Part shown: in pieces, positions 7,549-54,292 of the stretch
Position numbering within the stretch: position 1 is the first letter of the stretch
How the letters are laid out: the number at the start of each line of letters is the position of its first letter
Origin: a virus
Taxonomy: Duplodnaviria > Caudoviricetes
DNA length: 64,000 bases
Virus record (IMG/VR): IMGVR_UViG_3300042870_001240
Strand: one strand, 5' to 3'
Translations under genes and position numbers: made by a program
The notes under the pieces: generated by a model
Seen by the model: the letters and a program-made list of their open reading frames with translations, nothing else
The model's database searches: none
Told to the model about the DNA's origin: nothing

Positions 7549-9480
7549 TTATTTTATTTTTATTTTCATTTTAGTACCAATTTCATTCTTCTCACAAGTA
7601 ATCTTAAACTTATGTTCTTCCAAGATTGCGACACAAATATTTAACCCTAATCCAGTCCCAGATTCTTTTTGTCCTTCTTTTCTTGTATAAGGTTTGGATA
7701 AATAATTAAAATCGTCTTGAGTAATACCTCTACCGTTATCTTGTATGTAAATTGAATCCTCATCACCATATACCTTAACAAACTTTGTTTCGGAGTCGTT
7801 ATATTTTAAACCATTCCTAATTAGATTATCAACTGCGGTACAGAACAACGGTTCATTAAGTTCAATGGTTGGTAAATTATCGTCTAATATCACCTGACTT
7901 ATATAAGCCGTTGATGATAAATAATCTGCAAGAATATTTTTTACATTACATTCGGTCTTGTTTAATACCACATCTTTCTTAACTAGATTGGTAAACTCAT
8001 AAACCCCTTTATAAACTTTTTGTGAGTGTTTAAGACCTTCCTTAATCATTTTAAGTGGTGCCTCAATTTTAAGGTTAGTAATATCTTCTTGGGATAATCT
8101 CCTTTCTAATGAATTAACCCCTCTTGGTATATAAGTATTAATCCCTGAGTGCATATCATGTCTTAATATTTTAGCCGCGTGTTCTAAGTAGGTATTTTTC
8201 TTTTCAATTTCCTTCTTTTGTTCATAAGAAGTAGTAATGTCTGTAGCGATTTTCATAACACGATAAATCTTACCATCAGTACCAATAATAGGATTGTAAG
8301 TCGCCTGTAGATATACTAAAGACCCGTCTTTTTTGACTCTAACAATTTCACCTGAAAATAACTCACCATTATTTAATTTTTCCCAAAAAAGAGAATAGTC
8401 ATCGCTTTTCGAATATTCATCGTCAATAAAAATTCTGTGGTGTTTTCCGACAACCTCATCTTGTGACGAATATCCCATAGTACCTAAAAACAAGTCATTC
8501 GCAAAAATAATGTTACCTTCTAAATCAAATTCAATAACGGCATTAGATTTGTTTATCGCATTCATTCTATTCCGAATCTCCATCTCTTTTTTCTTAAGTT
8601 CCGTAACGTCTTGTCTAATTGATGAAAACCCGTCTAACTTACCATTCTTATCGAATTTTGCTTTGATGAATGTGTCAACGTAATATAATTCTCCTGATTT
8701 TCCTTTATTGGTAACAACGTCATTCCATATTTCACCATTCATTACCGTCTTATACATCTTACCCCAATAACCGTCAGGTTGTAATCCCGAATTAACAATA
8801 ATATGGTCCTTGCCTTTTACTTCGTCTAAAGACCATCCAGAAACTTCCTCAAATTTTTTATTAACGTAGGTTATTTTACCGTATTTATCAGCAACCGAAA
8901 CAATTGCGGCACTATTTAAAAAATTTTCAGTTTCTTTATTTATTCTCAATAAATCATTTCCTTCTTTAACTGAATAAGTAAAACTATAAAGAGATGATAA
9001 TAGTTGTGCAAAATCAACCTCAGAACTATCCCACTCTCTAAGTGTTAGTGACTCAATACAAATTACCCCAATGGTTTCCCCTTTATAAATAATAGGAACA
9101 TCTAACATAGATTTTACCCCAAGAGGTTTTAAATACGTTTCGGTAAAACAAGAAGTCGCTTGGTGTATTTCGGCATCATTTGCAATGATAATTGGGTTTT
9201 CTAATAACGCTAAGAAATAGGATTGGAAATCTTTTTTATAAAGTGTTATGTCTTGATACCAACTGTTTTCAGATTTAATATGTAATTGTTCACATATAAT
9301 TTCAGACTTATCTTCATTGTATAACCATATTGAACACCTATCGGCATTTATTGATTCCGTAACTTCTTTAGTTAATACTTTAGCACCTTCAGTTGTATTA
9401 CCTTCATAAAATAAAGGATTGTGTGATTGGGAGATAAGTACCTTATTTAATTTTTTAGTATAGTCAAGATGTTTTATCAT
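7549..9480 (-). CDS. Soluble GAF-PAS-PAS sensor histidine kinase
   Basis: GAF (ADRCSIW..LDVPI), two PAS domains (ITYVNKKF; IIFANDLF), H-box RHDM, N-box NLIRNGLKY, DNGRG, GTGLGL. Confidence 0.92.
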   Translation of the reverse strand: MIKHLDYTKKLNKVLISQSHNPLFYEGNTTEGAKVLTKEVTESINADRCSIWLYNEDKSEIICEQLHIKSENSWYQDITLYKKDFQSYFLALLENPIIIANDAEIHQATSCFTETYLKPLGVKSMLDVPIIYKGETIGVICIESLTLREWDSSEVDFAQLLSSLYSFTYSVKEGNDLLRINKETENFLNSAAIVSVADKYGKITYVNKKFEEVSGWSLDEVKGKDHIIVNSGLQPDGYWGKMYKTVMNGEIWNDVVTNKGKSGELYYVDTFIKAKFDKNGKLDGFSSIRQDVTELKKKEMEIRNRMNAINKSNAVIEFDLEGNIIFANDLFLGTMGYSSQDEVVGKHHRIFIDDEYSKSDDYSLFWEKLNNGELFSGEIVRVKKDGSLVYLQATYNPIIGTDGKIYRVMKIATDITTSYEQKKEIEKKNTYLEHAAKILRHDMHSGINTYIPRGVNSLERRLSQEDITNLKIEAPLKMIKEGLKHSQKVYKGVYEFTNLVKKDVVLNKTECNVKNILADYLSSTAYISQVILDDNLPTIELNEPLFCTAVDNLIRNGLKYNDSETKFVKVYGDEDSIYIQDNGRGITQDDFNYLSKPYTRKEGQKESGTGLGLNICVAILEEHKFKITCEKNEIGTKMKIKIK

Positions 9481-9544: not shown

Positions 9545-10363
9545 ATGACTAAATTAGGTTCAAAGGGAGATGTTGTTAAACAAATCCAACAAAAATTAGG
9601 AATTACCGCTGATGGTAATTTTGGTCCTGGTACAGAAAAATCGGTTAAAGAATGGCAAACCAAAAATGGTTTAACCCCCGATGGTGTCGTAGGACCCTCA
9701 ACTTTAGAAAAAATGGGGATTACTTCTGTCATTAAAGAAGATGTAATCATTCCGTCAGGAGGTCCATTAAGTCTTGAAAAATTAAAGGGTCATATTCCTG
9801 ATTCAGTAATCGCTCAAATCCCCGAGACGGCAATTAAATTTAACATTACAAACAATTTAAGGTTGGCTCATTTCTTGGCACAATGTAGTCATGAATCAGG
9901 GGGGTTTAAAGTGTTCCAAGAGAATTTAAACTATTCTGTTGATGGTCTTAAAAAGATATTCCCAAAATATTTCCCCGGTAATCTTTCAGAATCTTACGCA
10001 AAACAACCTGAAAAAATCGCTTCAAAAGTTTATGGTGGAAGAATGGGTAATGGTGATGAATCAACTAAAGAAGGATATAAGTTTCGTGGCCGCGGTTTTA
10101 TCCAATTAACCGGAAAATCAAATTACACTAACTTTACTAAGTTTATTGGTGAAGATTGTGTGGCAAATCCTGATTTAGTTTCGACAAAATATCCGTTGGC
10201 ATCTGCGGCTTTTTTCTTTAATAATAATAATCTTTGGTCTATTTGTGATAAAGGAGCTTCAGACGATGTTGTAACACAAGTAACAAAAAGAGTTAATGGA
10301 GGTACTATAGGTTTACCTGACAGAATCAAACATTTTAAAGAGTTCTATTCTTTATTATCATAA
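9545..10363 (+). CDS. Endolysin: peptidoglycan-binding domain plus GH19 lysozyme
   Basis: ADGNFGPGT/PDGVVGP PG-binding repeats; HESGGF, RGRGFIQLTG, TKRVNGG. Confidence 0.92.
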   Translation: MTKLGSKGDVVKQIQQKLGITADGNFGPGTEKSVKEWQTKNGLTPDGVVGPSTLEKMGITSVIKEDVIIPSGGPLSLEKLKGHIPDSVIAQIPETAIKFNITNNLRLAHFLAQCSHESGGFKVFQENLNYSVDGLKKIFPKYFPGNLSESYAKQPEKIASKVYGGRMGNGDESTKEGYKFRGRGFIQLTGKSNYTNFTKFIGEDCVANPDLVSTKYPLASAAFFFNNNNLWSICDKGASDDVVTQVTKRVNGGTIGLPDRIKHFKEFYSLLS

Positions 10364-21495: not shown

Positions 21496-22284
21496 ATGGA
21501 ACCAAATAGACTACTTTTATTATCAAAAAAATTACACCCATCGTTAAGAACCAAGACTCCATCGGTCATCAGCCAATTAATTTTAAAGGACATTCATTAC
21601 GAACCAATTAGAAATCTTTTAACAGGTAAAGAAATAATCATTTTATCGTTTTTAATTAATGGTCTGAATAGAACTGAGGACATTAATAGTTTGTATGAAC
21701 AAATTGTAAGCGGTATGTTTGTTTTTTCAATCCTTGAGGTTGATGATGTGGAACCTGAATACAATTGTGAAAATTGTGGGGGAGATGGGGATGTCATGTG
21801 TAATAACTGTGATGGTACTGGTGATGTTGATTGTTCAGATTGTGATGGGGACGGAGAAATTTATTCAAGCGATGATGATGGTGGAGGTACCTGTAATACG
21901 TGTCAAGGAGGTGGTAATGTCGTGTGTGACGAATGTAATGGTTCTGGTCGTGAGACTTGTTCAGAATGTTATGGTTCAGGTGCCACTTCCAAATACGGTT
22001 ATGTGACAATAACTCAAGATTTCTATGTAAGTTATGACCCTAAAATATATTCTTTATTAGAAACAAAAGATGAAGAAAGTGAAATGGATTCTGAGATTGA
22101 CCATAAAATTACAAAATCGTCAAGAACATTTATTTTTGATAGATTAGAGGGTGATACCGATAAGTTACCTAGCGAAGCATCAAATGAAGATAGAATTTTT
22201 GTTGGAATAGATAAAGGTGATGTTGAGTTTGGAAAGGGGTCGGATAAATTAATTGATTATAATAGTTTAGAACAATACATATAA
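21496..22284 (+). CDS. Protein with six DnaJ-type CxxCxGxG zinc-finger repeats and no J-domain
   Basis: CENCGGDG, CNNCDGTG, CSDCDGDG, CNTCQGGG, CDECNGSG, CSECYGSG; no HPD motif. Confidence 0.8.
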   Translation: MEPNRLLLLSKKLHPSLRTKTPSVISQLILKDIHYEPIRNLLTGKEIIILSFLINGLNRTEDINSLYEQIVSGMFVFSILEVDDVEPEYNCENCGGDGDVMCNNCDGTGDVDCSDCDGDGEIYSSDDDGGGTCNTCQGGGNVVCDECNGSGRETCSECYGSGATSKYGYVTITQDFYVSYDPKIYSLLETKDEESEMDSEIDHKITKSSRTFIFDRLEGDTDKLPSEASNEDRIFVGIDKGDVEFGKGSDKLIDYNSLEQYI

Positions 22285-34586: not shown

Positions 34587-35018
34587 TTATTTTTTTAATA
34601 TTACACCATCTTCTGATTTATTACTTGGATTATTATATATTGAATCAGAATTACTCACTATAACCCTACCACCATAAATTGTTGTTCCATCTGGTTTCAA
34701 TTCAAATGGAGATTCTTTTTGTCCTCTAATCCCATTGTTTTGTGAAATTATAACATATCCAGTGTCTGACCCATCATTTTTTGAAACCGTAGTCAGATTC
34801 CCACTTTGAGTTTCTGTGTAAAGTCCGAATGGTAATGTTATAGTATTAACCTCTTTATATCCTAATTTAAGATATTCTTTAACTGTGTTATCATACCAAC
34901 TAACACCATCAGGTGGGGCACCACCACCAGGATTACTATTTTGTTCATTTAATAATCGGCTCTCCAATCTTTGATTGGATTCCTGAATGTGTCTTATCTT
35001 ACTGTAACTTCTGTTCAT
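34587..35018 (-). CDS. MNRSYSKIRHIQESNQRLE.RLLNEQ leader-family protein
   Basis: 26-aa leader almost identical to that of 37467-37892; body unrelated. Confidence 0.75.
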   Translation of the reverse strand: MNRSYSKIRHIQESNQRLESRLLNEQNSNPGGGAPPDGVSWYDNTVKEYLKLGYKEVNTITLPFGLYTETQSGNLTTVSKNDGSDTGYVIISQNNGIRGQKESPFELKPDGTTIYGGRVIVSNSDSIYNNPSNKSEDGVILKK

Positions 35019-35258
35019 ATTTTTTGTTTATTATAAATATGTCTGAAAACAAAAACCCCAACCTGTATAAGAGATGGGGGGATTAAATAATAATCTTACC
35101 TTTGGCAAATCCAAATTCTCTAACTTTCAAATTTGATTTTGTTTTATACTTCTTTTTTAAGAATTTAACAAAATCCACAACCTGTAATCTCAAATCTTTA
35201 GGAAGTGAATTAATCTCAGATATTAATGTTGTATTTGTCATAACACAAATTATAAAAT

Positions 35259-35540
35259 TTATTTTTCGTCAGAGAACTCAATATAAACACTAATTGTATT
35301 TTCAATACCAATTGATTTAATCGTATCCCTAATTAAAGATTTAATATCTTCCCAATACTCACGACCGTTCTTAAGAAATGTATTACTATCAATTATCAAA
35401 AAAACATTATACACAATATTACGTTTTTTGTCTGTATAAAAACTCCGAGGATTCATTTCACTGGTAACCTCAACATCCTCGAACTCAGGATATTTCTCAT
35501 CCAAGACATATTTAACAATTTTTTTAATGTAATCTTCCAT
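35259..35540 (-). CDS. Hypothetical protein
   Basis: TATTTAT upstream. Confidence 0.7.
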   Translation of the reverse strand: MEDYIKKIVKYVLDEKYPEFEDVEVTSEMNPRSFYTDKKRNIVYNVFLIIDSNTFLKNGREYWEDIKSLIRDTIKSIGIENTISVYIEFSDEK

Positions 35541-35566
35541 AGTAATAAATATTATGTATTAGTATT

Positions 35567-36106
35567 TTAGATGGTAACATCATCTTTATGAGCAAGAACC
35601 TCTTCCACCCCCTCAATATCCTCTAAATAAGCACAACTAGTTGTATTTACCTTACAATTAAGAACCTCTTCAACCTTCAGTTGGCTATACGCCCATCCTA
35701 CGACAGTTGTGGTTACCTTACAGTTGAGGACCTCTTCCACCTGGCAATCTCCATTAAAATAGCCACACCGCGTTGTATTTACCTTACAGTTGAGGACCTC
35801 TTCCACCACTAGAGCGCGTGCTCGATTTATTACCAGCGTTGTATTTACCTTACAGTTGAGGACCTCTTCCACCCATTCGGACATAATCTTATCAAAATCA
35901 GGAGATTCCAAAGAAAAGAGAACAAAAAAACTCTTAAAGAAATCATATCTCCACCATAACTTACCCTCATTTTCATATTCAAAATACCAATACTTATTAT
36001 CTCTATCGATAAAGTATACACTGTCCTTATAAGAAATTATCTCGACCTTGGATAACTCCTTATAAAGTTTTTTGAATATAATATCTTTTAATCTATCTGA
36101 AACCAT
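35567..36106 (-). CDS. Repeat-array protein A: conserved N-terminal domain plus VEEVLNCKVNTT + 10 variable aa units
   Basis: Start MVSDRL after a TATATTTG promoter; paralog of 41453, 41993 and 52900. Confidence 0.85.
   Translation of the reverse strand: MVSDRLKDIIFKKLYKELSKVEIISYKDSVYFIDRDNKYWYFEYENEGKLWWRYDFFKSFFVLFSLESPDFDKIMSEWVEEVLNCKVNTTLVINRARALVVEEVLNCKVNTTRCGYFNGDCQVEEVLNCKVTTTVVGWAYSQLKVEEVLNCKVNTTSCAYLEDIEGVEEVLAHKDDVTI
35594..35873 (-). repeat. In-frame array A: 36-nt repeats with 30-nt unique spacers
   Basis: Repeats at 35838-35873, 35772-35807 (identical), 35706-35741, 35640-35675 and a partial ending at 35609; period exactly 66. Confidence 0.95.
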
Positions 36107-36154
36107 ATTACAAATATAATAATAATAAATGAAATAAAAAATAAAGAACACATC

Positions 36155-36463
36155 TTAACATTCATCGTTATTAAAATCCCAATATTCCATTATCCTTATT
36201 CTGAAGTTTTTCTTAACATATTCAATTAGATATTCTTCCATCTTTGAATATCCATCATCTTCCTCATTTTCAAAATAATGATATAGATAAGTCTTAGCCG
36301 TTGTTAAACATACATAATCATAATACTCTTGAAAATTATCGAAATTACAGATGAACTCATCCACCCCCTCATCAACAATGTCCCATATTAAATCAAAATC
36401 TTCCTCAACCCTCCTGAGAACATATATCAACATATTCTGTTGTTCAGTTATAATGTATTTCAT
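36155..36463 (-). CDS. MKYIITE leader-family protein
   Basis: Leader motif. Confidence 0.75.
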   Translation of the reverse strand: MKYIITEQQNMLIYVLRRVEEDFDLIWDIVDEGVDEFICNFDNFQEYYDYVCLTTAKTYLYHYFENEEDDGYSKMEEYLIEYVKKNFRIRIMEYWDFNNDEC

Positions 36464-36549
36464 ATGTTATGTATTAGTTTATACATAAATATACACATAA
36501 ATAAAAAACCCCACCTATAACAGATGGGGGGTTATATATAAGATATTTT

Positions 36550-37170
36550 TTATAAAAACTCCATCAAAATCTTCGCATCCTCAGACACAAGACGTTTTGT
36601 GTTGTTCTGAAGCAAATCAAATGATTCAAATGAAAACGGACTATCACCAACCCTTGTCATAAATTCAGATTCAACATGAGGCTTAAATTTACCCATCTTC
36701 TCAATCTTACCATATCCAGGATACTCAGAATTATTTGTCCCAATAAGATAATTGTTATCACCACCCTTCTCAATAATCATAACACTATCCTGACAAAATA
36801 ACTCACCAAGCTTGGTCATATTCGAAATAAAATTAGAATCGTCTTTAATATTAACAACAAAGAAACTTTCCTCATTAACCTCAATGGCGTTTTGCTCAGC
36901 AAAATTTTCAATATACGTTCCCTTAACTTTTGTAACACCATAACCAAGATACAATAAAGCAGATTTTAAATGACGATTCCTATTCTTGTTTATCCGAATA
37001 TTAACATATCCCTTGTCATCATCACCACCCAAACAATTTGTTAGACTTTTTCTATATGATGTTATAATCGAACATTCATGCTTTATCAAATGATTATACA
37101 CACGATTAATAGATGATTCATTTAATAATAAAGAAAATCGACTCATTAGGTCTCTCATTTGTTGACTCAT
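36550..37170 (-). CDS. Conserved phage protein (DUF3293-like) with LLNE leader
   Basis: ESSINRV..H....IITSYR..N..L...L...GYG..V.G.Y.E..E.SFFV..QDSV pattern. Confidence 0.65.
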   Translation of the reverse strand: MSQQMRDLMSRFSLLLNESSINRVYNHLIKHECSIITSYRKSLTNCLGGDDDKGYVNIRINKNRNRHLKSALLYLGYGVTKVKGTYIENFAEQNAIEVNEESFFVVNIKDDSNFISNMTKLGELFCQDSVMIIEKGGDNNYLIGTNNSEYPGYGKIEKMGKFKPHVESEFMTRVGDSPFSFESFDLLQNNTKRLVSEDAKILMEFL

Positions 37171-37216
37171 AGAATAAAAATATATTAATAAATACAAAGT
37201 TAATCAATATTTCAGA

Positions 37217-37275
37217 TTTTTCCCAAAAATTTTTTTTTATATATAGGGAACAATTTAGAACAGGGGGTCATGTTC
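37217..37275. repeat. ~60-bp imperfect repeat also present at 39224-39282
   Basis: tttttccc/agaaattt...atatag.gaaca.tt.aaaca.ggggtc.tgtt in both places. Confidence 0.65.
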
Positions 37276-37302
37276 TTAAAATGATAGGTGGTGCACTTAA
37301 AT

Positions 37303-37397
37303 AAAAGGGGGCGGGGGGATTGACCACGACCGAAGGGAGTTCGGACGGTCTGGACTTATATTAAATAAAAACCCCCACCTGTATTAGAAAGTGGGGG
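37303..37397. repeat. ~95-bp structured intergenic repeat, copy 2
   Basis: 40-nt core identical to copy 1. Confidence 0.85.
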
Positions 37398-37466
37398 TTA
37401 TTTAAAAAAGTGGGGGTCGTGTTTATAGGAAATAAAAAACCCCTCTGTTGGGAGGGGTAATATTAT

Positions 37467-37892
37467 TTACAGTTTATAATACTTACTAGCCGATTCGTTA
37501 TCAGGGTCAATTGGAATAGGTAATTCTTTACCTATTGTTTTATCGGGATAAGAAATTTTTACTTTTGATACGAAATTTTTATAAGCCTCCGCAAAGTCAC
37601 CACCACCGACACTAACAAGTACTCTACCTGAACCATCTCTTAAATCTATATATCTATCTTTTCCTGGCCCCAACATGTAAACACAAGATTTAAAACCAGG
37701 GGTTTCAACACCAGTACCATATGTTCCTGTCATATTATTACACAATGGTTTATTATATGTCGGTTTTAAAGTTGTATTATTAGGAGTGGCTCCCGTTGTA
37801 GTTTGGGTTGTAACTTGTTCATTTAACAATCGGTTCTCCAATCTTTGATTGGATTCCTGAATGTGTCTTATCTTACTGTAACTTTTGTTCAT
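37467..37892 (-). CDS. MNKSYSKIRHIQESNQRLE.RLLNEQ leader-family protein
   Basis: Leader plus TATTTAT. Confidence 0.75.
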   Translation of the reverse strand: MNKSYSKIRHIQESNQRLENRLLNEQVTTQTTTGATPNNTTLKPTYNKPLCNNMTGTYGTGVETPGFKSCVYMLGPGKDRYIDLRDGSGRVLVSVGGGDFAEAYKNFVSKVKISYPDKTIGKELPIPIDPDNESASKYYKL

Positions 37893-38084
37893 GGTATTTT
37901 AGTTTATATATAAATATCACATATAACAAAAAACCCCACCTAAAAATATTTCGATTAAAAGTTGACAGTATAAAAAATAATTCGTAATATTTTGTTGTTG
38001 TTGGTTAACATAAAACCATCTCGTCAAACCCAACGGTTAGACCAATGTGGTCGAGGGTAATTATAAACAATTAAAACTTAAAAA

Positions 38085-39188
38085 ATGAAAAAGTTTAGAG
38101 TACGAATGACTAATGTTTCGACAAGATTAGTTGATGGTGAAACACAAAAATGGCTGACATGTGAGGTGTCACTATCTTCCCTAATAGAAGCAAAAAGAAA
38201 ACTAGGGAAAGAATTATTTTCCGTAAATGTTAGAGGATGTTTATCTAACAGTAAACCAACAAGTCAAGAAAGGAAAAAACCTGTATTCAGAGGTATAATG
38301 AATACAATGGACAAGATAAGAAAAAACCCTGAAAAAGCTTATCTGCAAACTATGGGAAATAATGGTTGTACGATAATGTGTGGTTCTATTGAAAGAATAT
38401 CTGGTGATATCTATGAAATCACATTAACCCATGATTACCATGGAATTGGTAACGGTCAACAAACGATTTATATAACCGAGTGGATTGATACAAATTATCC
38501 AATAAGTAGTGATGTAACCATACTATGTAAAATGGCCATTGGACTTTCAGAGGATGACTGTAACGACATATGTAAGGCAAATAACACAAGTAACAAAATC
38601 GATAAGAAAGATATCAAATCCATAGAGTGGAAAAGAATAAGTATGGAACTTAAAACATTGGGTATAACTTTCAATTATAAAAAAGAAAAAGAAGGTCAAT
38701 ACCATATCGACATCTGTGCTGAAAATTACTATAATATGATTGGGGCATATTTCACAAACAAACCTTGGGTAAACGGCCAAGAAGTGGTCGATAAAATTAA
38801 ACCTAACATCATATCAGGAAAAGAGATGATTGAAATGGATAGGGTAAAGAAAATAATTGATGATTGGTTTGAAACCAATGATAATGAGGTTAAAAAACAT
38901 AGTAATAAAATGGATACTACAAGAATGGGTTATTTAAAGAACATTATGATTTCATTATACACGGATGTTAAGATACAAGCAAGAGTAAAACCATTTATAA
39001 AAAAATACGGAGATGTTAAATTTTTTGAACTAATCTTTAAAGTTGTTATAAACACCATAGAAGAAAACGAAACAACTAAAGTATCGTCAAATTATTTTAA
39101 TAAAAAAACATACGAATTATTAAGTAAATCTATTGAAGTAGAAATTTTAGAATCAGAAATTTTAAAATCAGAAACGGTCTTAGTTTAA
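38085..39188 (+). CDS. AIPR-like (ParB/Srx-fold) protein
   Basis: LFSVNVRG, NNGCTI, IGNGQQT, NNTSNKI..KD motifs in AIPR order. Confidence 0.7.
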   Translation: MKKFRVRMTNVSTRLVDGETQKWLTCEVSLSSLIEAKRKLGKELFSVNVRGCLSNSKPTSQERKKPVFRGIMNTMDKIRKNPEKAYLQTMGNNGCTIMCGSIERISGDIYEITLTHDYHGIGNGQQTIYITEWIDTNYPISSDVTILCKMAIGLSEDDCNDICKANNTSNKIDKKDIKSIEWKRISMELKTLGITFNYKKEKEGQYHIDICAENYYNMIGAYFTNKPWVNGQEVVDKIKPNIISGKEMIEMDRVKKIIDDWFETNDNEVKKHSNKMDTTRMGYLKNIMISLYTDVKIQARVKPFIKKYGDVKFFELIFKVVINTIEENETTKVSSNYFNKKTYELLSKSIEVEILESEILKSETVLV

Positions 39189-39391
39189 TTGTAATAAATT
39201 TCCCCCTAACTAATATAGGGGAATTTTTCCAGAAATTTTATTTTACATATAGAGAACATTTTAAAACAAGGGGTCGTGTTTCTATATACATGGGGGAATT
39301 TTTCCAAAAATTTCTATAAACATTTTTTCATACAAATATTTCATTTAAGGGATTATCCCCCCTTTTGACACCCCAAAAACCACTATATGGA

Positions 39392-39416
39392 GGGGGGATA
39401 CGGGGGAGGGAGGGGG
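39392..39416 (+). other. G-quadruplex-forming motif
   Basis: GGGGGG-ATAC-GGGGG-A-GGG-A-GGGGG. Confidence 0.7.
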
Positions 39417-39603
39417 TACCTACCCCATATAGGGGGGTATAGAGGGGACCTCCCCCCATAAACGAGACGGGACACTATAGGGTCCTCCCCTGTCTGTAAT
39501 CTAATGTATGTGGGTGATGTAATTTTGATGACATATACAAGTAATGTTATTAACATGACATAATGACATTGTTAATAAGATTTGTTAATGGGGGAATAAT
39601 ATA

Positions 39604-39635
39604 TTTGTGTATGTTGGGGATTGTATGTATCTTTG
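39604..39635 (+). promoter_or_regulatory. Bacteroidota sigma70-type promoter
   Basis: TTTG (39604-39607)-N20-TATCTTTG (39628-39635). Confidence 0.75.
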
Positions 39636-39640
39636 TATTG

Positions 39641-39775
39641 TCAGTGGTTAAGTCCGAGACGGGTTCGACAAGGGGGTTGTCGCAGAGGGTGTACTCCAAC
39701 CTGCTTATATGTTTACTTAAAACCAAACCATAAGGCAGGCTGGAGTATACTCGGTCCCCATCTTCTGAATGGTCA
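39641..39775. ncRNA. Candidate structured RNA between convergent promoters
   Basis: CGACAA-GGGGG-TTGTCG (39666-39682) and a ~21-bp stem pairing 39687-39708 with 39730-39752. Confidence 0.55.
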
Positions 39776-39780
39776 CAACA

Positions 39781-39812
39781 CAAAGATACAAAAAAGATTT
39801 GATAGATACAAA
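39781..39812 (-). promoter_or_regulatory. Bacteroidota sigma70-type promoter facing the 39604 promoter
   Basis: On the minus strand, TTTG (39812-39809)-N20-TATCTTTG (39788-39781). Confidence 0.75.
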
Positions 39813-39847
39813 TTGTTTATTTAGAATATTATCCCTATCTTCGTATA

Positions 39848-40285
39848 ATGTTTATACAACTTATATCACATATAGAGAATCGGATTAAGTATAACAACTA
39901 CTCATCCGTGATTAATTTAACCAACAAGGAACGTAGGGACCTTGCCAAGTTCTGTCTTGAATATTGTATTGAAGTTATCGGTCAACCTAAGAAGAAAGGA
40001 ATCCCCAAGTTCAATATCGTTAAGACCAAGAAACCTTATTATGGGGAATATGTTAGCGAACATGAAAAGATATGCGTATTTTATAATCAATGTAAAACCA
40101 TTGGCACCTTCATCAGCACATTCATTCATGAATATACCCACCATACCCAAAACCTTAATAAGTATGATAAGGTATTATCCAAAGTTGGGTATGATAATCA
40201 CCCCAAAGAGATTGAAGCAAACAACATGGCAAAGTTATATAAACAACCATGCCTTGAAGCATTCCGTAAATCAATCCAATATTAA
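39848..40285 (+). CDS. HExxH metallopeptidase-like protein
   Basis: FIHEYTHHTQ...HPKEIEAN. Confidence 0.7.
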   Translation: MFIQLISHIENRIKYNNYSSVINLTNKERRDLAKFCLEYCIEVIGQPKKKGIPKFNIVKTKKPYYGEYVSEHEKICVFYNQCKTIGTFISTFIHEYTHHTQNLNKYDKVLSKVGYDNHPKEIEANNMAKLYKQPCLEAFRKSIQY

Positions 40286-40593
40286 ATTATCCCCCTAACA
40301 TGTTCCCGTATCACCTGTAACGAATGTTCCCTAATATACATCTGTAAATCATTATGGTCATCACTAGATAATGGATACTCCTTATGGATATACTCTATCA
40401 CATCCCCCATGTCAGTCTCCGTTAATAACAATACAGATTGGGGTTGAAGTCTACTCATCCCACTTTTTCCAACATACTTACACGTCCCCTCAAATAAACC
40501 ATGACCATATGTCACAATATAACACCCATCACTCTCCGTGATGACCGTTGAAAACTTTTTTAGTACACTTTCGTACATCTCTTTTCTACCCAT
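40282..40593 (-). CDS. Hypothetical protein
   Basis: ORF track. Confidence 0.6.
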   Translation of the reverse strand: MGRKEMYESVLKKFSTVITESDGCYIVTYGHGLFEGTCKYVGKSGMSRLQPQSVLLLTETDMGDVIEYIHKEYPLSSDDHNDLQMYIREHSLQVIREHVRGII

Positions 40594-40662
40594 AATTGTT
40601 GATAACTTTTTTTATAAATCCCTCCTGACACTATGACAGAGGGGAATTGTTGATAACTTTTT
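40594..40662. repeat. Two AATTGTTGATAACTTTT repeats (DnaA-box-like) flanking a TGACA box
   Basis: At 40594 and 40645; TTATCAACA is one mismatch from TTATCCACA. Confidence 0.6.
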
Positions 40663-40907
40663 ATTAAATAAATATGTTAAAATATTTGGAATTGTCATTT
40701 TGTCAGTCACGCTTGACAATGGGGATAATCCCCCTCACCACCTTTTTTATATATTTTTTCCCACCTTTTCCCACCGATAATGGTCATAATAATATTGTAA
40801 TGTCACTTTTTTCCCTCTGTAGGGGTCTACAAGACCAATAAATTCACTATAGGTAAATCCCAGCTAATTATGTTCTTAAGAGTACACTAAGCGGTGAAAC
40901 ACGTAGT

Positions 40908-40980
40908 GTGTTAGAAACTAACACCCGATTACCATGAGATGTGTTAGAAACTAACACTTGATTTTCATGAGATGTGTTAG
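40908..40980. repeat. Iteron-like 33-bp tandem repeat with the palindrome GTGTTAG-AAA-CTAACAC
   Basis: Units start at 40908, 40941 and 40974 (partial). Confidence 0.85.
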
Positions 40981-41132
40981 GATAATATCTTCAACGACCA
41001 CTTTAGTGGGACATTATACTCCCCACCATAATGACATACCATAACAAATTATAGGTAAGTTCTTTTAATAGTTAAAGAGAAACATCATTTATGATGAACA
41101 TGGTAACTACCATATAACTAACTCTATGGGAA

Positions 41133-41183
41133 TATAAGGTTATAACCTTATAATCACCCATTATAAGGTCCTGACCTTATAAT
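41133..41183. promoter_or_regulatory. Two tandem palindromes TATAAGGT-N4-ACCTTATA
   Basis: 41133-41152 (perfect 20-bp palindrome) and 41162-41181. Confidence 0.8.
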
Positions 41184-41452
41184 TTGATTATCTCATCTAT
41201 ACAATATTTTTCCACCATAACAATTTACCAATATGTCACCATAACAATGGGGAAATTATATGTAATGACGTATACCTTACTGTTGCACCCTCATATTTAA
41301 TATGTATCTACATATAATGGGGACCTGATATAAATGGGGGAATATGATTATGAAGGAATACCGTAGTGAATGAAATGAACGGGAGGGATGAGTGAGTAAT
41401 TATATTCTCTCATTTATTGTATAACTAAAATATTATTATTATCTTTGTGATT

Positions 41453-41989
41453 ATGGTTAGTGGTAGATTAAAGGATTTGATATTTAAGAAACTGTATAAA
41501 GATTTATCTCATGTAGAAATTATTGAGTATAAGGGTGAGATATGGTTTATTGATAGAAAGGAAAAGTTTTGGTATTTTATATATACTAAGTCTAATGGTC
41601 AGATGTGGTGGAGATATTCTTTCTTTACTCCTTTCTTTCTTCTTTTCTCTTTACCCTCTGATGAATTTACTCACATTCTTTCTTCTTGGGTGGAAGAGGT
41701 CTTAAATTGTAAGGTGACCACAACACTCAAGGTGGCTAATGTTAGGGAAGTTATGGTGGAAGAGGTCTTAAATTGTAAGGTGACTGAAACAGAAACCGTT
41801 ATTAATGGCTACCCCCTATCGGTGGAAGAGGTCCTAAATTGTAGGGTGACTACAACAATGGTGTCTATTGCTTCTTTACCAAAATCGGTGGAAGATGTCC
41901 TAAATTGTAGGGTGACTACAACAATGATAGACAGAGGTATTCCACGTCATGAGGTGGAAGAGGTTTTAAATAATAATATAAATAAATAA
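41453..41989 (+). CDS. Repeat-array protein B
   Basis: Same N-terminal domain as protein A; TATCTTTG promoter at 41440-41447. Confidence 0.85.
   Translation: MVSGRLKDLIFKKLYKDLSHVEIIEYKGEIWFIDRKEKFWYFIYTKSNGQMWWRYSFFTPFFLLFSLPSDEFTHILSSWVEEVLNCKVTTTLKVANVREVMVEEVLNCKVTETETVINGYPLSVEEVLNCRVTTTMVSIASLPKSVEDVLNCRVTTTMIDRGIPRHEVEEVLNNNINK
41689..41974 (+). repeat. In-frame array B: 36-nt repeats with 30-nt spacers
   Basis: Repeats start at 41689, 41755, 41821, 41887 and 41953 (partial); period 66. Confidence 0.95.
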
Positions 41990-41992
41990 GAT

Positions 41993-42688
41993 ATGGTTAG
42001 TGATAGATTAAAGGATTTGATATTTAAGAAACTGTATAAAGATTTATCTCGTGTAGAGATTATTCATTATAAAACTTATATATGGTTTATCGATAGAGAG
42101 GATAAGTGTTGGTATTTCAGGTATGATAAATCTGACGGCACACTCTTATGGAGATATTATTTCTTCATGGATTTTTTTACCCTCTTTACGATGAGTTCCA
42201 TCGAATTTGTTCCCATCATATCTTCTTGGGTGGAACAGGTTATAAATAATAAGGTAACTATAACTCGCAACAAGATGACTTCATTTCCAGACGATATTGA
42301 AGATGCCTTAAATTGTAAAATGGTGGAAGAGGTAATAAATCATAAGGTTTCATTCGACTTAGGATATTCCATTTCTACCCTTTGTGAGGTGGAAGATGTC
42401 CTAAATCATAAGGTAACTAAACCAGATGGTGTCATTGCACTATATAATCCGATTGAAGAGCATCATAAGGTGGGATTAACTTTAGGACCTTCCCTTCCCC
42501 AATATGAAATGGTGGATGAGGTCCTAAATCATAAGGTAACTAAAACAGATGGAGCGATTGCATGGAGCGGTCCGATAGAAGAGGCTCTAAATAATAAGGT
42601 AAATACGACCGAAGATGAAATAGATAACAACATACGTGACCACCTCCTCAACCTTCAGCTGGCTATACGCCCATCCTACGACAGGTGA
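41993..42688 (+). CDS. Repeat-array protein C (degenerate units)
   Basis: Repeat starts at 42229, 42295, 42322, 42388, 42451, 42511, 42574; the tail is an inverted copy of an array A unit. Confidence 0.85.
   Translation: MVSDRLKDLIFKKLYKDLSRVEIIHYKTYIWFIDREDKCWYFRYDKSDGTLLWRYYFFMDFFTLFTMSSIEFVPIISSWVEQVINNKVTITRNKMTSFPDDIEDALNCKMVEEVINHKVSFDLGYSISTLCEVEDVLNHKVTKPDGVIALYNPIEEHHKVGLTLGPSLPQYEMVDEVLNHKVTKTDGAIAWSGPIEEALNNKVNTTEDEIDNNIRDHLLNLQLAIRPSYDR
42642..42687 (+). repeat. 43/46-nt copy of 35664-35709, antisense to its host gene
   Basis: acctc[c/t]tcaaccttcag[c/t]tggctatacgcccatcctacgacag[g/t]tg. Confidence 0.95.
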
Positions 42689-42693
42689 AGATT

Positions 42694-43437
42694 TTAAACC
42701 ATATTAACTTTATTTTGCCATAACCCAAAAAAATCAGAATTTTTTATTACAATAGACCAACGCTCTATTTCTGATTTTCGATTTGACATATCTATTTCTT
42801 TTCTTGATGATGATGGTAGTTTAATTATGGTAGATAATTCGGAACTTGATAATTTAACATTTGGTGTTAAAAATATTTGTCTCCACATATAAAGGTCACT
42901 CCAAATATTTTTTGGTGCAGGTCTCCATCCAAACTTTAATTTTCTGTATAAATCCATTGTATGGGATGCTCCTGTTAAACTAATTTCATTTTGTTTAGGT
43001 TTTAAGTGATAATCAACCCATTTTTTATCTTTTAAATTAACCCTTGAAACCGTTAAGATATTATTTGGATATACTAAAACAGGTAATGGATGTGTAAAAT
43101 CACTATCAACTAACATATCTCTCATTACCTCAACATGTTTAGATAGTAAAAGGTCATCATCCCCAAGATAAGTAACTATGTCTGATTTTGATTCTGAAAC
43201 TATTCTATGTCTTGCAACTTCATTTCGACTTATTCTTTTTGGCTCATCCTCAAATCTAACTCTATTATCAGTTTTAATTATATCACTAATAACATCTCTT
43301 GTGTCATCAGTAACACCATCACCAATGATTACAATATCCAAATTATCAACCGTTTGGTTTTGAGCACTCTCAACTGAATATTTAAGTGTTGTGGGGTGAT
43401 TATGTGTCGGTATAACCACCATTACAGAATTTGACAT
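42694..43437 (-). CDS. Glycosyltransferase family 2
   Basis: VVIPTHNH..L..SV.SA..Q, IIGDG, YLGDDD. Confidence 0.85.
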   Translation of the reverse strand: MSNSVMVVIPTHNHPTTLKYSVESAQNQTVDNLDIVIIGDGVTDDTRDVISDIIKTDNRVRFEDEPKRISRNEVARHRIVSESKSDIVTYLGDDDLLLSKHVEVMRDMLVDSDFTHPLPVLVYPNNILTVSRVNLKDKKWVDYHLKPKQNEISLTGASHTMDLYRKLKFGWRPAPKNIWSDLYMWRQIFLTPNVKLSSSELSTIIKLPSSSRKEIDMSNRKSEIERWSIVIKNSDFFGLWQNKVNMV

Positions 43438-44005: not shown

Positions 44006-45598
44006 TTAGTTAAGATAATTTAAATCTTCATCCTCTTCTAACCCATTGTAGGCGTAAGTTTGGAAGTTAGCGTTTGTATCAACCCAAGCCATTGACCTGA
44101 ATGTAACACCATCATTAATCCTAAGTTTCTCTATCTCTAATTGTTTTAACTTATGATGTAATTCTTTTTTTATAAGTTGGATTTCTTTATCTTTGGAGTA
44201 TGCTAAATTTTCTGATTCATCGGTATCATTAATTAAATCATATAATTCATACTGAGTCTCGTAACTATTTAATGCGTCAAAATAATAAGTATACTTCCAT
44301 CCTTTAGTACGAATGGTTCTTAATCTATTACAAGTTTTAACTGATGACGATAAATTGTTTGACCCTGATTTAGTATCATCAAATGTGAATAGGATTTCAT
44401 TTTGTGCTGGTTCGTTATTCTCGATAATTGGTAGTAAGTTTACACCTCTACAATCAGATGGAACAGGAAGATTAACAAAATTAGATAACGTTGGTAATAT
44501 ATCAATTAACGTAGCAAGTTCGTGGGATGATTTATGTTTCAATGTTGTTGGAAATACAACAGGGTTTGATATGACCATTGGTATTCTAATTGCTTCCTCA
44601 TAAGCAACGAACGCTTTTTGTCTCATTCCACCATGTGACATTCCCATTTCTCCATGGTCTGCCAATCTAATAACGATGGCATCATTTGCCAAGTTAATAC
44701 CATCTTCTTTATTATATAGAACATCAATTACTTTACCTATCTCACCATCAATCTTTTTAAGTAGGAACGCATAAAAGTTTAAGTAATCTAACTTCATATC
44801 ATCATTCTTTAATACCCCTAATAGACCATCTGCGGCAATATTTGTTTGGAATTGGGCAATAGGTTTTGCGTTTTCTATTAAATTTTCATTCACAGTTGTT
44901 GGTAGATTTGGAATGTCTCTTCCTGTATAGTCAGGCTCATTATATCCATACTGTATTGAGTTTGGATATCCTAACACATCATGCGGATTAACTAAACTTA
45001 ACACTATACAATATGGTTGCATGTCACCATTTTTTCTTCTAACTTTAACTTGTTCAAGATATTCCATGGTCTGTTCGATATACATGGCATCATGATTGGC
45101 AAATCCTCCACCAAAATTTTCGGGTTTCGCGTCTTCGCCAGCGTCAGGACCAACCCATCCTTTAAATCCAAATAGTGCTATGTCTTTTGCTAATGGGTCA
45201 CCACCATCGGTGCCCTTACTAAGATGCCATTTTCCTCTGTATTGAACATCATAACCAATACCATCCAATATTCTTCCTATATTTGGTGTTTGGTTATTTA
45301 ATTGTGGTTCTACAGGTGAAAAAACACCTCCTGATGTTAATGTTTGTGTTACTTGATGTTGAGCAGGATAAGTTCCTGTGAACAATGTTGAGCGGCTAGG
45401 AGAACACATACAACTGTTACAAAAAGCTCTTTCAAAACTAAATCCATTTTCTTTTAAAAAGGTTAGTGTTGGTAGATTTTCTTTTTCCCAATTGTCAGGA
45501 AAATGTTGTGTGGCTCTTTCTTGGTCGGTGATGATAAATATAATATCTGGTTGAGTAGGTAACTCAGATAAATTTTGTTTAAAGTTATTTTGTTTCAT
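44006..45598 (-). CDS. Cys-type (formylglycine-dependent) sulfatase
   Basis: IFIITDQ, CSPSRSTLFTG, GKWH, DHGEM, YEE.IRIP; no signal peptide. Confidence 0.92.
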   Translation of the reverse strand: MKQNNFKQNLSELPTQPDIIFIITDQERATQHFPDNWEKENLPTLTFLKENGFSFERAFCNSCMCSPSRSTLFTGTYPAQHQVTQTLTSGGVFSPVEPQLNNQTPNIGRILDGIGYDVQYRGKWHLSKGTDGGDPLAKDIALFGFKGWVGPDAGEDAKPENFGGGFANHDAMYIEQTMEYLEQVKVRRKNGDMQPYCIVLSLVNPHDVLGYPNSIQYGYNEPDYTGRDIPNLPTTVNENLIENAKPIAQFQTNIAADGLLGVLKNDDMKLDYLNFYAFLLKKIDGEIGKVIDVLYNKEDGINLANDAIVIRLADHGEMGMSHGGMRQKAFVAYEEAIRIPMVISNPVVFPTTLKHKSSHELATLIDILPTLSNFVNLPVPSDCRGVNLLPIIENNEPAQNEILFTFDDTKSGSNNLSSSVKTCNRLRTIRTKGWKYTYYFDALNSYETQYELYDLINDTDESENLAYSKDKEIQLIKKELHHKLKQLEIEKLRINDGVTFRSMAWVDTNANFQTYAYNGLEEDEDLNYLN

Positions 45599-52584: not shown

Positions 52585-52893
52585 ATGGAATATAATATTA
52601 CACCAGAACAATTAGACCGATTAATTAAACCTTATTTTGATAAAGAATTTAAACACGCTAAGTGGAGTGAATATTATTTTTCAGATGGTGGAGGACTATG
52701 GTATGGGTTTATAAATCAGGATAACGTTATGTTAGTTGGTCACCCATCTAATGACAATGATTTTTACTTTACAAATGGTCAATATTTTCATGATATGTGG
52801 TACTTATTTAGTGTTAGACATCAAGAATTTAATGAGTCTATGGGTAGATACATTAAAAAGAAATATGGTTGTAAATTTGAAAGAATTATGTAA
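52585..52893 (+). CDS. MEYNITPE leader-like protein
   Basis: TATTTAT upstream. Confidence 0.7.
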   Translation: MEYNITPEQLDRLIKPYFDKEFKHAKWSEYYFSDGGGLWYGFINQDNVMLVGHPSNDNDFYFTNGQYFHDMWYLFSVRHQEFNESMGRYIKKKYGCKFERIM

Positions 52894-52899
52894 GTGTTG

Positions 52900-53580
52900 T
52901 TATTTTATTGATTCTATTAAAACCCCATTTTGAATGATGTCTTTTGGGAAAAAATCACGCTTTGACAATTCGGTATATTTCACCCCATTTTGAATGGTAT
53001 CTTCAACAAAGGAGTCGTTCAAAAAATTATAGATATTGGCGTGTTTCACCCCAATTTGAATGGTATTTTCAACGACAACGTTTGTAATGAACTCTACTCC
53101 TGTGGTGTTCTTCACACCATTTTGAATGGTATTTTCAACCTCTCTATCAAAATCTTCCGACCAATTATACTCATTAGGAATTTCATTTGTCCACGTATTT
53201 TTAATACCATCTTCAATAACTCTCCCAACAATAGGAATATTACCACCAATAACCCCTTCGGTTTCTTTTATACCGTTTTCAATAATACTAATAACCCCTT
53301 CTTCAAAAACAAACTTATTACCACTAATCGATAGTGGTTTATTCAAAATATTCTTAGTAAACCAATCAGTAATATATTCACTATTCTCAGTCACATTCAA
53401 TGACACAAAATTAAAAACATTATTAAATAATGAGTAATTATACCATAAGACATTCTCTTTAGTATATTCAAAAACCCATCTTTTTTCTTCGGTAAAAATA
53501 AACCACATTGACCCATTGTGATTGTAAATGTCAACACCTTTTAATTCTTTGTTTATTAATTGATTTATTGCTCGTTTCAT
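52900..53580 (-). CDS. Repeat-array protein D: divergent paralog with VENTIQNGVKxT + 10 aa units
   Basis: N-terminal domain aligns with proteins A-C; units start at 53139, 53073 and 53007 (period 66). Confidence 0.8.
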   Translation of the reverse strand: MKRAINQLINKELKGVDIYNHNGSMWFIFTEEKRWVFEYTKENVLWYNYSLFNNVFNFVSLNVTENSEYITDWFTKNILNKPLSISGNKFVFEEGVISIIENGIKETEGVIGGNIPIVGRVIEDGIKNTWTNEIPNEYNWSEDFDREVENTIQNGVKNTTGVEFITNVVVENTIQIGVKHANIYNFLNDSFVEDTIQNGVKYTELSKRDFFPKDIIQNGVLIESIK

Positions 53581-53581
53581 T

Positions 53582-54292
53582 TTAGATTTTTCCTATTTTA
53601 ATCACATTATTTTCTATAATCAAATACTCATCAGTTGTTCCTAAACAATCAATGAGGATTAAATTATCATCATTTAATACCGTCACTTCTTTAACCTGAG
53701 TGTGCCCAACAACACAAACAATTCCATCTACCATATCCTTCACCAAAGACTGTGGTCTAACCCATATAGGAGGTTGTGTAACATCGTTTCCACCAAAACT
53801 TAAGTTACCACCCATTGTGAATCTAAACTTCGTTATATCGGTTTTAAATAGGTCATTCACAGACCCCTGTAAATTATTATTATCTATACCACAATTCTTA
53901 CACCATGTTTTAGTTAAACCAGCATGACTGAAAAAATACTTATCATCTTGATAACACATCTGTAACAATCCTTCATCAACAACAGGTTGTAAGACACGAT
54001 TAATATTTTTGGCATAACCAAATTGGTATGAAGAGTAATGTTCATTAACACCTTTCAAATAATGGAAATCATGATTACCAACCAAAAGTATTACCTTATC
54101 AGGATTGGCCTTTTTGAACTCAACTATCTCTTTGAAGTTCTTAATCTGTCTGTTTGCACTGTATCCACCATTTTTATCATCAAAATAATCCCCAATAAAA
54201 ACCCATTTTGTAACTTGTGGATTTTTAATTATTTCTTTCCACTTACTTCTTCCGTGTGTATCACCAATGACCCCTATTATTTCTTTTTTCAT
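53582..54292 (-). CDS. Calcineurin-like metallophosphoesterase
   Basis: GDTHG, GDYFD, GNHD, SHAG, GHT; TATATTTG promoter. Confidence 0.9.
   Translation of the reverse strand: MKKEIIGVIGDTHGRSKWKEIIKNPQVTKWVFIGDYFDDKNGGYSANRQIKNFKEIVEFKKANPDKVILLVGNHDFHYLKGVNEHYSSYQFGYAKNINRVLQPVVDEGLLQMCYQDDKYFFSHAGLTKTWCKNCGIDNNNLQGSVNDLFKTDITKFRFTMGGNLSFGGNDVTQPPIWVRPQSLVKDMVDGIVCVVGHTQVKEVTVLNDDNLILIDCLGTTDEYLIIENNVIKIGKI

Follow-up and report, generated by a model that had tools for sequence, protein, structure and literature searches.

CRISPR-type arrays within the coding frame of paralogous phage genes, with two spacers identical to parts of bacterial genes

Introduction

[quoted passage not shown] The question is raised by gene A, one of a set of paralogous small genes in a 64,000-nucleotide stretch of virus DNA (IMG/VR record IMGVR_UViG_3300042870_001240; Caudoviricetes), which as a whole is called the window in what follows. 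An earlier note, made from the letters of this DNA alone, had described at the 3' end of gene A an array of 36-nt repeats and 30-nt spacers read in frame, and had weighed a protein-diversification system driven by spacer capture against an ordinary protein repeat of 22 residues. Its description proved correct in all points checked, and spacer capture is supported: the note had listed four outcomes that would speak against capture (mutually homologous spacers descended by tandem duplication, no match to foreign DNA, no polarity in the gain of units, and no DNA conservation beyond what the amino acids demand), all four were examined, and none was found. The preferred reading, to which a probability of roughly 60% is given, is that of a genuine CRISPR-type array in a phage gene, with integrase-type capture of host DNA into a coding repeat.

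Results

Gene A and its in-frame array

Gene A (35567-36106, minus strand) encodes, according to its open reading frame (ORF) and translation, a 179-residue protein composed of a 78-residue N-terminal domain (N-domain) and a translated array. Its start is probably the ATG at 36106 rather than a GTG upstream at 36151. The motif TAnnTTTG (36111-36118, minus strand), read from the sequence 4 nt 5' of this ATG, also precedes the paralogous gene B and is a candidate promoter, resembling the -7 element of Bacteroidota promoters. The conserved N-domain coding region (35873-36106, minus strand) occupies the place that a leader has in a CRISPR array; residues L18, W40, F57, F61 and W78 are invariant in the family alignment, and the last Trp codon of the domain supplies the first base of repeat 1.

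Array A (35574-35873, minus strand) consists of five 36-nt repeats and four 30-nt spacers with a period of exactly 66 nt; the control for the repeat search, 100 shuffles of the window, gave 0 matches. The gene-proximal repeat 1 (35838-35873) and repeat 2 (35772-35807) are identical, with 0 mismatches between them, repeat 3 (35706-35741) has two changes and the 3' end AACCACAAC, repeat 4 (35640-35675) has four changes and begins GGTTG, and the terminal repeat (35574-35609) is degenerate and is followed by the stop codon at 35567-35569; the decay away from the N-domain that the note had remarked upon is thus borne out (0, 0, 2 and 4 changes, then degenerate). Between the repeats lie the gene-proximal spacer A1 (35808-35837), spacer A2 (35742-35771), spacer A3 (35676-35705) and spacer A4 (35610-35639), which would be the oldest and is common to the relatives P0003 and P0004. 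All four are on the minus strand, mutually unrelated and free of in-frame stops, and their GC content as counted from the sequence (37-50%) lies above that of the window (31%), again as the note had it. The whole array sits within ORF 35567-36106 and is read as 22-residue units made of VEEVLNCKVNTT and 10 variable residues, the 36-nt repeat being the coding sequence of VEEVLNCKVNTT (12 codons) together with, in the first unit, the final base of the preceding Trp codon. Constant direct repeats that separate unique spacers of near-constant length are the generic geometry of a CRISPR array, and array A has this geometry.

Bacterial sources of the spacers

When a 23-mer of spacer A1 was compared with the metagenome contigs of the Joint Genome Institute, it matched three of them: two that belong to the phage itself and a bacterial one, L151. 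Spacer A1 is 30/30 identical to L151:2210-2239 (31 nt including one flanking C), and the flanks are otherwise unrelated. The protospacer lies within a DEAD-box helicase gene, to which the sense strand of the phage is antisense, and the contig also carries genes for a squalene-hopene cyclase and for DUF3822, RsmD-like, CoaD-like and NUDIX proteins. The L151 helicase is 80% identical to that of G006, a freshwater metagenome-assembled genome (MAG) of the Chitinophagales; among 80 orthologous loci, the best identity of the helicase site to A1 is 23/30. Spacer B4 in the array of gene B (41923-41952, plus strand) is an exact 30-nt copy, 30/30, of part of gcvT at G006:C15:46151-46180 (L233:1501-1530), again with unrelated flanks and with a match that stops at the edges of the spacer. 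Its source gene encodes GCV_T domains, and the copy is sense and in the same reading frame, phage tail and GcvT both reading MIDRGIPRH; only one of 401 genomes of the order, G006 itself, has this 30-mer in gcvT. The first spacer of the array in the relative L017 matches at 26/30, in antisense, an open frame in G006 and in a further MAG, G007, which, read by eye, we take to be pntA-like. The traced sources are thus represented twice in antisense (helicase and pntA-like frame) and once in sense (gcvT).

The spacers are copies of other DNA, with matches ending at the spacer edges, and the idea that they match foreign sequences is upheld for A1 and B4, each in a bacterial gene. The GC content of the family's spacers (39.5%) fits stop-filtered host-like DNA (38.3%; the host loci themselves have 37%) and not the phage (31%). 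The bacteria that hold the protospacers are presumably the hosts of the phage. Further searches returned little. Exact 23-24-mers of A1 and A2 are absent from IMG/VR and from one genome each of 185,579 species, and for A2 no source was found; the 85 spacers of the family gave nothing in ~300 kb of related phage DNA except an inverted copy of A3; and no spacer match appeared when the array regions were compared by blastn with 50,697 phage records. The arrays of the relatives L017 and L025 had no exact match in 101 and 401 Chitinophagales genomes, with two candidates scored per genome, and the region of a distant paralog (52880-53620, array included) had no match in five genomes.

Turnover at the gene-proximal end

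Comparison of related arrays shows that their units turn over at one end. In 182 array pairs sharing at least one unit, the units not common to both are upstream in 771 cases and downstream in 147, and 126 pairs differ solely upstream against 2 that differ solely downstream; the pairs are not independent, and the skew is extreme all the same. The relative P0003, 88% identical to the gene A protein, is without the A1 unit, and P0004 and P0006 have two distal units in common and different proximal ones. Internal losses of units and some reordering of cassettes between arrays are also seen, as in bacterial arrays. The leader-to-trailer-like polarity that had been suspected from array A alone therefore holds across the family, and the comparison suggests that units are gained at the leader end and that the first repeat is duplicated in the process.

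A separate kind of change is found in P0002 (99% identical to the gene A protein), in which spacer A3 has a 3-nt insertion, VVGWAYSRQLK standing against VVGWAYSQLK; spacers can therefore also change by in-frame insertions and deletions after their capture.

The repeat as a unit of DNA

Each repeat begins in the wobble position of the codon before it (in the first unit, with the final G of the invariant Trp codon), and the base at this place is G in 86 of 90 family units, so that what had been noticed in arrays A and B is a feature of the family; as this wobble G is fixed, the last variable residue is restricted to amino acids with G-ending codons. Where divergent family members have the same residue, their codons agree at a rate of 0.765 in the repeat versus 0.570 in the N-domain. 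The decisive point, however, comes from sister subfamilies whose ORF closes within the first unit or directly behind it; near-identical repeats nevertheless continue farther on, with spacers of 29-33 nt. In one untranslated array (L017:9850-10130) the spacers measure 30, 33, 30 and 32 nt, and the frame is therefore lost; in another (L017:12350-12760) the 66-nt period is kept and stops occur in nearly every spacer; and in two more (L013:7180-7300 and L003:4817-4920) the spacers are 29 nt long. Identical repeats that are never read in frame cannot be explained by a protein repeat. On this comparative evidence the repeat is a DNA-level unit and more than a peptide, and the conservation of DNA beyond amino-acid constraint that the note had called for is borne out by the wobble G, the synonymous sites and the untranslated sister arrays.

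Within the untranslated array of L017, the differences between the repeats at 9857-9892 and 10055-10090, as we read them, leave the pairing of an inner 4-bp stem intact (CTTT/AAGG to CTCT/AGAG). It is possible that this change is compensatory, in a repeat not read as protein.

Selection for an open frame and the protein it yields

In the subfamily to which translation applies, the reading frame is kept open. Arrays of the VEEVLNCKV type lie entirely inside an ORF in 22 of 23 cases, and an in-frame stop is present in one of 85 spacers, where each of the other five frames has stops in 24 to 50 of them; from random host-like 30-mers, 58% would be expected to be stop-free, as compared with the 84/85 observed (P ~4e-19). 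Spacer length in the translated subfamily is 30 nt, or 33 nt in one P0002 unit. Judged from these counts, the open frame is selected for in this subfamily. The evidence reaches as far as this selection, and protein diversification as the purpose of the array, as the note had envisaged it, is not borne out.

The variable peptides have near-maximal entropy at each position and the composition of translated random sequence. An AlphaFold (AF2) model, as the note had proposed, is confident for the N-domain, where the predicted local distance difference test score (pLDDT) averages 64-92 in blocks of 10 residues as far as about residue 80 and the order is helix, four strands, two helices, while the repeat part has no confident fold, with pLDDT <50 over nearly all of residues 86-179. 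A fold search of this model against PDB representatives and AFDB clusters gave nothing at Z >=5 (best E 0.057), the best match being leucine-rich-repeat (LRR) type proteins at Z 4.7, on the low-confidence repeat part. For shared spacers no dN/dS value was measurable, with one informative pair only. An ordinary 22-residue solenoid was considered and rejected, the variable parts being unrelated and of near-maximal entropy and two of them being copies of bacterial genes.

Paralogs and protein family

The window holds three paralogs of gene A, and the array that the note had called B is real. Gene B (41453-41989, plus strand) ends in an array (41689-41989) with four spacers, the stop lying in its degenerate terminal repeat. 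It stands in tandem with gene C (41993-42688, plus strand), whose array is eroded and of uneven period, and a distant paralog with 22% identity (52900-53580, minus strand) has an array with a 66-nt period at 52971-53139 and the repeat peptide VE(N/D)TIQ(N/I)GVK. The tail of gene C contains the inverted copy of spacer A3 mentioned above (42654-42683; 29/30 identity), with about 14 nt from the 5' end of a repeat, likewise inverted, ahead of it (42640-42653), and situated between the last spacer of array C and the degenerate terminal repeat with its stop; this tail encodes ...DHLLNLQLAIRPSYDR. Recombination between oppositely oriented, quasi-palindromic arrays is the simplest explanation for it.

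The gene A protein family comprises at least 1130 homologs, with lengths in steps of ~22 residues, and arrays reach 14 repeat hits in the relative L016. Three phage records that were searched have 3-12 paralogs each, many of them without an array and then of 103-130 residues. Neither gene A nor its family has a Pfam or PHROGs assignment, nothing scoring above threshold on the three paralogs scanned, and megablast and tblastn found no relative of gene A in 50,697 phage records.

Likeness to type VI-B repeats

The note had connected the array with type VI-B (Cas13b) CRISPR systems through its 36+30 geometry and its ACAAC-type end. Both of these stand, and the array units have, as regards the remainder of a VI-B repeat, neither the consensus GTTG...TTTTG...GGTA...ACAAC nor a stable hairpin. 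The reference set was the VI-B repeats of 45 Bacteroidota genomes, with Segatella buccae, Bergeyella zoohelcum and F. columnare among them, and from these repeats a covariance model (R1) was built. The best match of this model in the whole window is repeat 4, in sense orientation, with 17.8 bits and a non-significant E of 0.26, and on the other units of the window and on five related loci the array units lie in the noise. When compared ungapped, in fixed register and on the better strand, the phage repeats share 22-26/36 positions with the nearest of the 45 VI-B repeats (empirical p <=7e-4), which is extreme among the window's own 36-mers; in some subfamilies the antisense strand is closer to VI-B than the sense strand. 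For the repeat of array A the folding energy is -2.2 kcal/mol (z +1.3), no better than shuffles, and the phage repeats together range from -2.2 to -5.3 kcal/mol (z +1.3 to -0.4), as against -10.9 (z -2.5) and -7.0 (z -1.6) for real ones. RNAalifold gave no consensus structure for the phage repeats, and in an Rfam scan of 35000-43000 at E<=10 the arrays matched neither a CRISPR repeat family nor any other credible RNA.

Ferruginibacter, Chitinophagaceae and Taibaiella do have VI-B arrays; in 101 relatives of G006 no VI-B repeat turned up, an empty answer that is not proof of absence. The largest ORF of the window has <=643 residues, and no search aimed at cas13b was made. As far as sequences can be compared, the likeness to VI-B repeats is real but modest, and the array is of the CRISPR type without being a member of VI-B; what speaks against the tie is the covariance model, the fold and the search of the 101 relatives.

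Cas genes and the candidate integrase

Cas1 (PF01867) is absent from the five phage records searched, one of them rated 100% complete at 293,850 bp, and an adaptation complex of the host may act in trans. Among the 101 relatives of G006, 42 have Cas1. The arrays beside cas1 in six of these relatives have 30-nt spacers, with repeats of 46-47 nt in four genomes and of 36 nt in two. The two 36-nt repeats, in the arrays L259:8367-9923 (G017) and L261:8397-8773 (G049), recur with a period of 66 nt and end in AACCACAAC, the same nine bases as in repeat 3 of array A; the four longer ones have the same GTTGT...ACAAC ends. In Flavobacterium columnare, the VI-B array gains its spacers through the II-C Cas1-Cas2 in trans, and the II-C and VI-B repeats share the leader-distal GTTGT/ACAAC motif only (PMC8092290). 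By analogy with this arrangement, we infer that host Cas1-Cas2 may act in trans on the phage repeat.

Discussion

Proposed mechanism and rival explanations

In the proposed mechanism, the 36-bp repeat doubles as the last 12 codons of a small phage protein. A new unit would arise at the gene-proximal repeat, where a host chromosome fragment of ~30 bp would be inserted and the 36-bp repeat duplicated, a pattern that would be the footprint of a Cas1-Cas2-type integrase with a ruler. The host adaptation complex would work in trans on a repeat that shares its ...ACAAC end with the II-C and VI-B repeats of Bacteroidota. Selection would filter the insertions, such that in the translated subfamily only multiples of three without stops persist; as the surviving insertions are in frame and stop-free, the array is translated as 22-residue modules whose 10-residue segment is essentially random. 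In the sister subfamilies, the ORF stops after the first repeat and leaves the array untranslated. The geometry, the exact bacterial protospacers, the polar turnover, the conservation of the repeat without translation and the selection for an open frame are established. Capture as the mechanism has good support; which integrase acts, and where it comes from, is what we infer. [quoted passage not shown] A bolder version, in which a family of freshwater jumbo phages deliberately exposes a coding repeat to host adaptation and in-frame host DNA becomes either a heritable hypervariable tail, in effect a natural peptide-display cassette, or a high-copy sink that draws spacer integration off the host's own array, is tentative and on the whole doubtful.

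Several observations weigh against capture by a host integrase. Exact sources were found for only 2 of the window's ~13 spacers, with one diverged source (26/30) in L017, and from the sources found no protospacer-adjacent motif (PAM), which the note had proposed to look for, could be derived. No integrase is tied to the phage arrays, and Cas1 was not found in G006 or G007, MAGs whose completeness is not reported. The proposed comparison with host CRISPR repeats gave no bacterial match, a degenerate pattern of the repeat not being found in one genome each of 185,579 species; known viral mini-arrays have repeats equal to those of the host, whereas no genome of this set has the phage repeat. The strong selection for translation is unexplained by a purely DNA- or RNA-level role. 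Lastly, the 21 nt 3' of the A1 protospacer (L151:2240-2260) match the first 21 nt of the repeat at 16 positions in register, a likeness to the 5' half of the repeat that includes a 10-mer and has an empirical p of ~1e-4, the upstream flank of the protospacer being without likeness; a homology-dependent copying mechanism could be the alternative. Chance, a homology-assisted step, or an anti-tag filter that silences a guide against host mRNA could each account for this flank. A repeat-like flank was not adopted as a general rule, since it is found for A1 and not for B4, whose protospacer has none.

Other explanations account for parts of these data. If the array existed for the sake of a hypervariable tail, with 10-residue segments between 12-residue scaffolds renewed by spacer capture, then the strongly selected open frame (84/85), kept although truncation behind repeat 1 would still give a protein similar to the array-less paralogs, would be accounted for; the maximal diversity of the variable segments and the translated spacer lengths (30 nt, once 33 nt in P0002) would agree with it as well. 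Purposeful diversification is nevertheless rather unlikely. The arrays of the sister subfamilies are never translated, so that translation is not needed for arrays to exist; one segment is antisense helicase and another sense gcvT, which leaves no logic in the peptide content; the repeat part has no confident AF2 fold (pLDDT <50); and dN/dS, with its single informative pair, offers no measure. If instead the terminal motif merely resembles the host repeat, off-target Cas1-Cas2 insertions may occur there and the harmless ones survive without any function. The sources do look like random samples of the host chromosome in mixed orientation (helicase, gcvT, pntA-like frame), and off-target integration by E. 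coli Cas1-Cas2 has reportedly founded new arrays. Such neutral scars ('neo-CRISPR') are an unlikely account, given that between divergent phages synonymous sites change less in the repeat than in the N-domain, that the motif persists in many paralogs among at least 1130 proteins, and that the avoidance of stops implies that the downstream units matter.

That the array is a true VI-B array, whose transcripts host Cas13b processes to CRISPR RNAs (crRNAs) serving as guides against host mRNAs or as Racr-like decoys, would agree with the 36+30 nt geometry, the 22-26/36 identity to the nearest real repeat (p <=7e-4), the sense-oriented array unit as best model match in the window, the presence of such arrays in Ferruginibacter, Chitinophagaceae and Taibaiella, and the inner-stem change of L017, read by eye. 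This is improbable in view of the model score (17.8 bits, E=0.26), the other loci in the noise and the lack of any Rfam match, of the weak folding (-2.2 to -5.3 kcal/mol) without RNAalifold consensus and the closer antisense strand in some subfamilies, and of the 101 G006 relatives, in which no VI-B repeat was seen; moreover, of the two spacers with exact matches, one has the sense orientation of its gene. An ordinary solenoid protein, a multi-core precursor like those of ribosomally synthesised and post-translationally modified peptides (RiPPs), or a shuffling of cassettes without foreign capture would find some encouragement in the motif V-E-x-[VT]-[LI]-[NQ]-x-[KG]-V, conserved in the protein even in the 22%-identical paralog, in cassettes that recur in different order in different arrays, and in a low-confidence AF2 model that is weakly LRR-solenoid-like (Z 4.7). 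All three are highly improbable against the exact 30-nt bacterial matches, the untranslated arrays, a wobble G that is present whatever the residue, and variable parts with the composition of random sequence. A Pfam scan of 20 large ORFs of the window found neither RiPP modifying enzymes nor the reverse transcriptase of a diversity-generating retroelement, and no template-like second copy of any spacer was found besides the inverted copy of A3.

The phage and other features of the window

The relatives of this phage are IMG/VR contigs that reach 293,850 bp, with one rated complete, and it is by this size a jumbo phage. In blastn, the only real match is that of a neighbouring gene of L017 to a gene of a 160-kb Flavobacterium myophage. 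At least 22 metagenome runs from lake water carry >=95% of the locus's sampled words. The window also encodes a thymidylate synthase, a lysozyme with a peptidoglycan-binding domain and a glycosyltransferase, as well as a set that is unusual as phage cargo: HSP70 (1719-3590), a GAF-PAS histidine kinase (7549-9480), a DnaJ-like zinc-finger protein (21496-22284), an AIPR protein of the abortive-infection type (38085-39188) and a sulfatase (44006-45598).

Two further observations concern the surroundings of the arrays. An AT-rich stretch of 28 nt (40666-40693) recurs with 100% identity at two sites ~3 kb apart on one contig of a Chitinophagales genome (G065:C12:87-114 and 3122-3149); in the window it is intergenic and has a 33-nt tandem repeat (40907-40980) in its vicinity. 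G/C-clamped hairpins of the form AAAACCCC(C)ACC ... GGTGGGG recur after genes (35046-35089, 36498-36541, 37362-37405 and 37925-37944) and are probably a shared intrinsic terminator.

Comparison with known systems

We know of no array with a coding repeat, nor of one that is kept in frame and translated, joined to several paralogs and filled with host DNA, and limited literature searches found no report of a translated CRISPR-type array. If a host integrase writes into the phage genome, this would be a new channel of sequence flow from host to virus and a record of host identity, here of freshwater Chitinophagales, and it may be a new form of counter-defence, an adaptation decoy or a programming of host Cas proteins. 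If the translated tail is functional, it would be the first case of CRISPR adaptation diversifying a protein.

Huge phages carry compact arrays without cas1/cas2, some spacers of which target host genes (Al-Shayeb et al. 2020; PMC7162821). They resemble the present case in the large phages, the short arrays, the missing adaptation module and the host-matching spacers; some also lack effectors, and use of host Cas proteins has been proposed for them. In contrast to these, the arrays described here are fused to the 3' ends of paralogous small genes, have a coding repeat and occur several to a genome, one subfamily has its whole array in frame and translated, and no host array with the same repeat was found. 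Adaptation in trans has a parallel in a plasmid type IV-A system that uses that of its host (PMC11656645). Viral mini-arrays, solitary repeat units that act as RNA anti-CRISPRs (Racr; PMC10651486) and viral crRNA-like RNAs (bioRxiv 10.1101/2024.10.29.618823; reviewed in PMC11656645) are likewise virus-borne repeat mimics without cas genes, which exploit or block host Cas proteins. Their repeats are identical or nearly identical to those of the host and non-coding, with 0-2 spacers that target related viruses or the promoters of cas or toxin genes, whereas the phage repeats here are 61-72% like real ones and the traced spacers are from host housekeeping genes; searches of 50,697 phage records, of ~300 kb from related phages and, with 2 spacers, of IMG/VR gave no spacer match to related viruses, most spacers being untraced.

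The VI-B array of F. columnare (PMC8092290) shares with the phage arrays the 36-nt repeat, the 30-nt spacer, the ...ACAAC end, machinery encoded elsewhere and novelty at the leader-proximal end. The phage repeat, unlike it, fails the covariance model and has no stable hairpin, its leader is a coding domain, and the array is on a virus. In neo-CRISPR formation (Nivala et al. 2018, Nat Microbiol), a spacer is reportedly inserted beside a repeat-like sequence, which is duplicated and so founds an array, as is proposed for the phage repeat; that case concerns bacterial chromosomes under over-expression, whereas the process in these phages would be recurrent, viral, located at a conserved coding motif and filtered by the reading frame.

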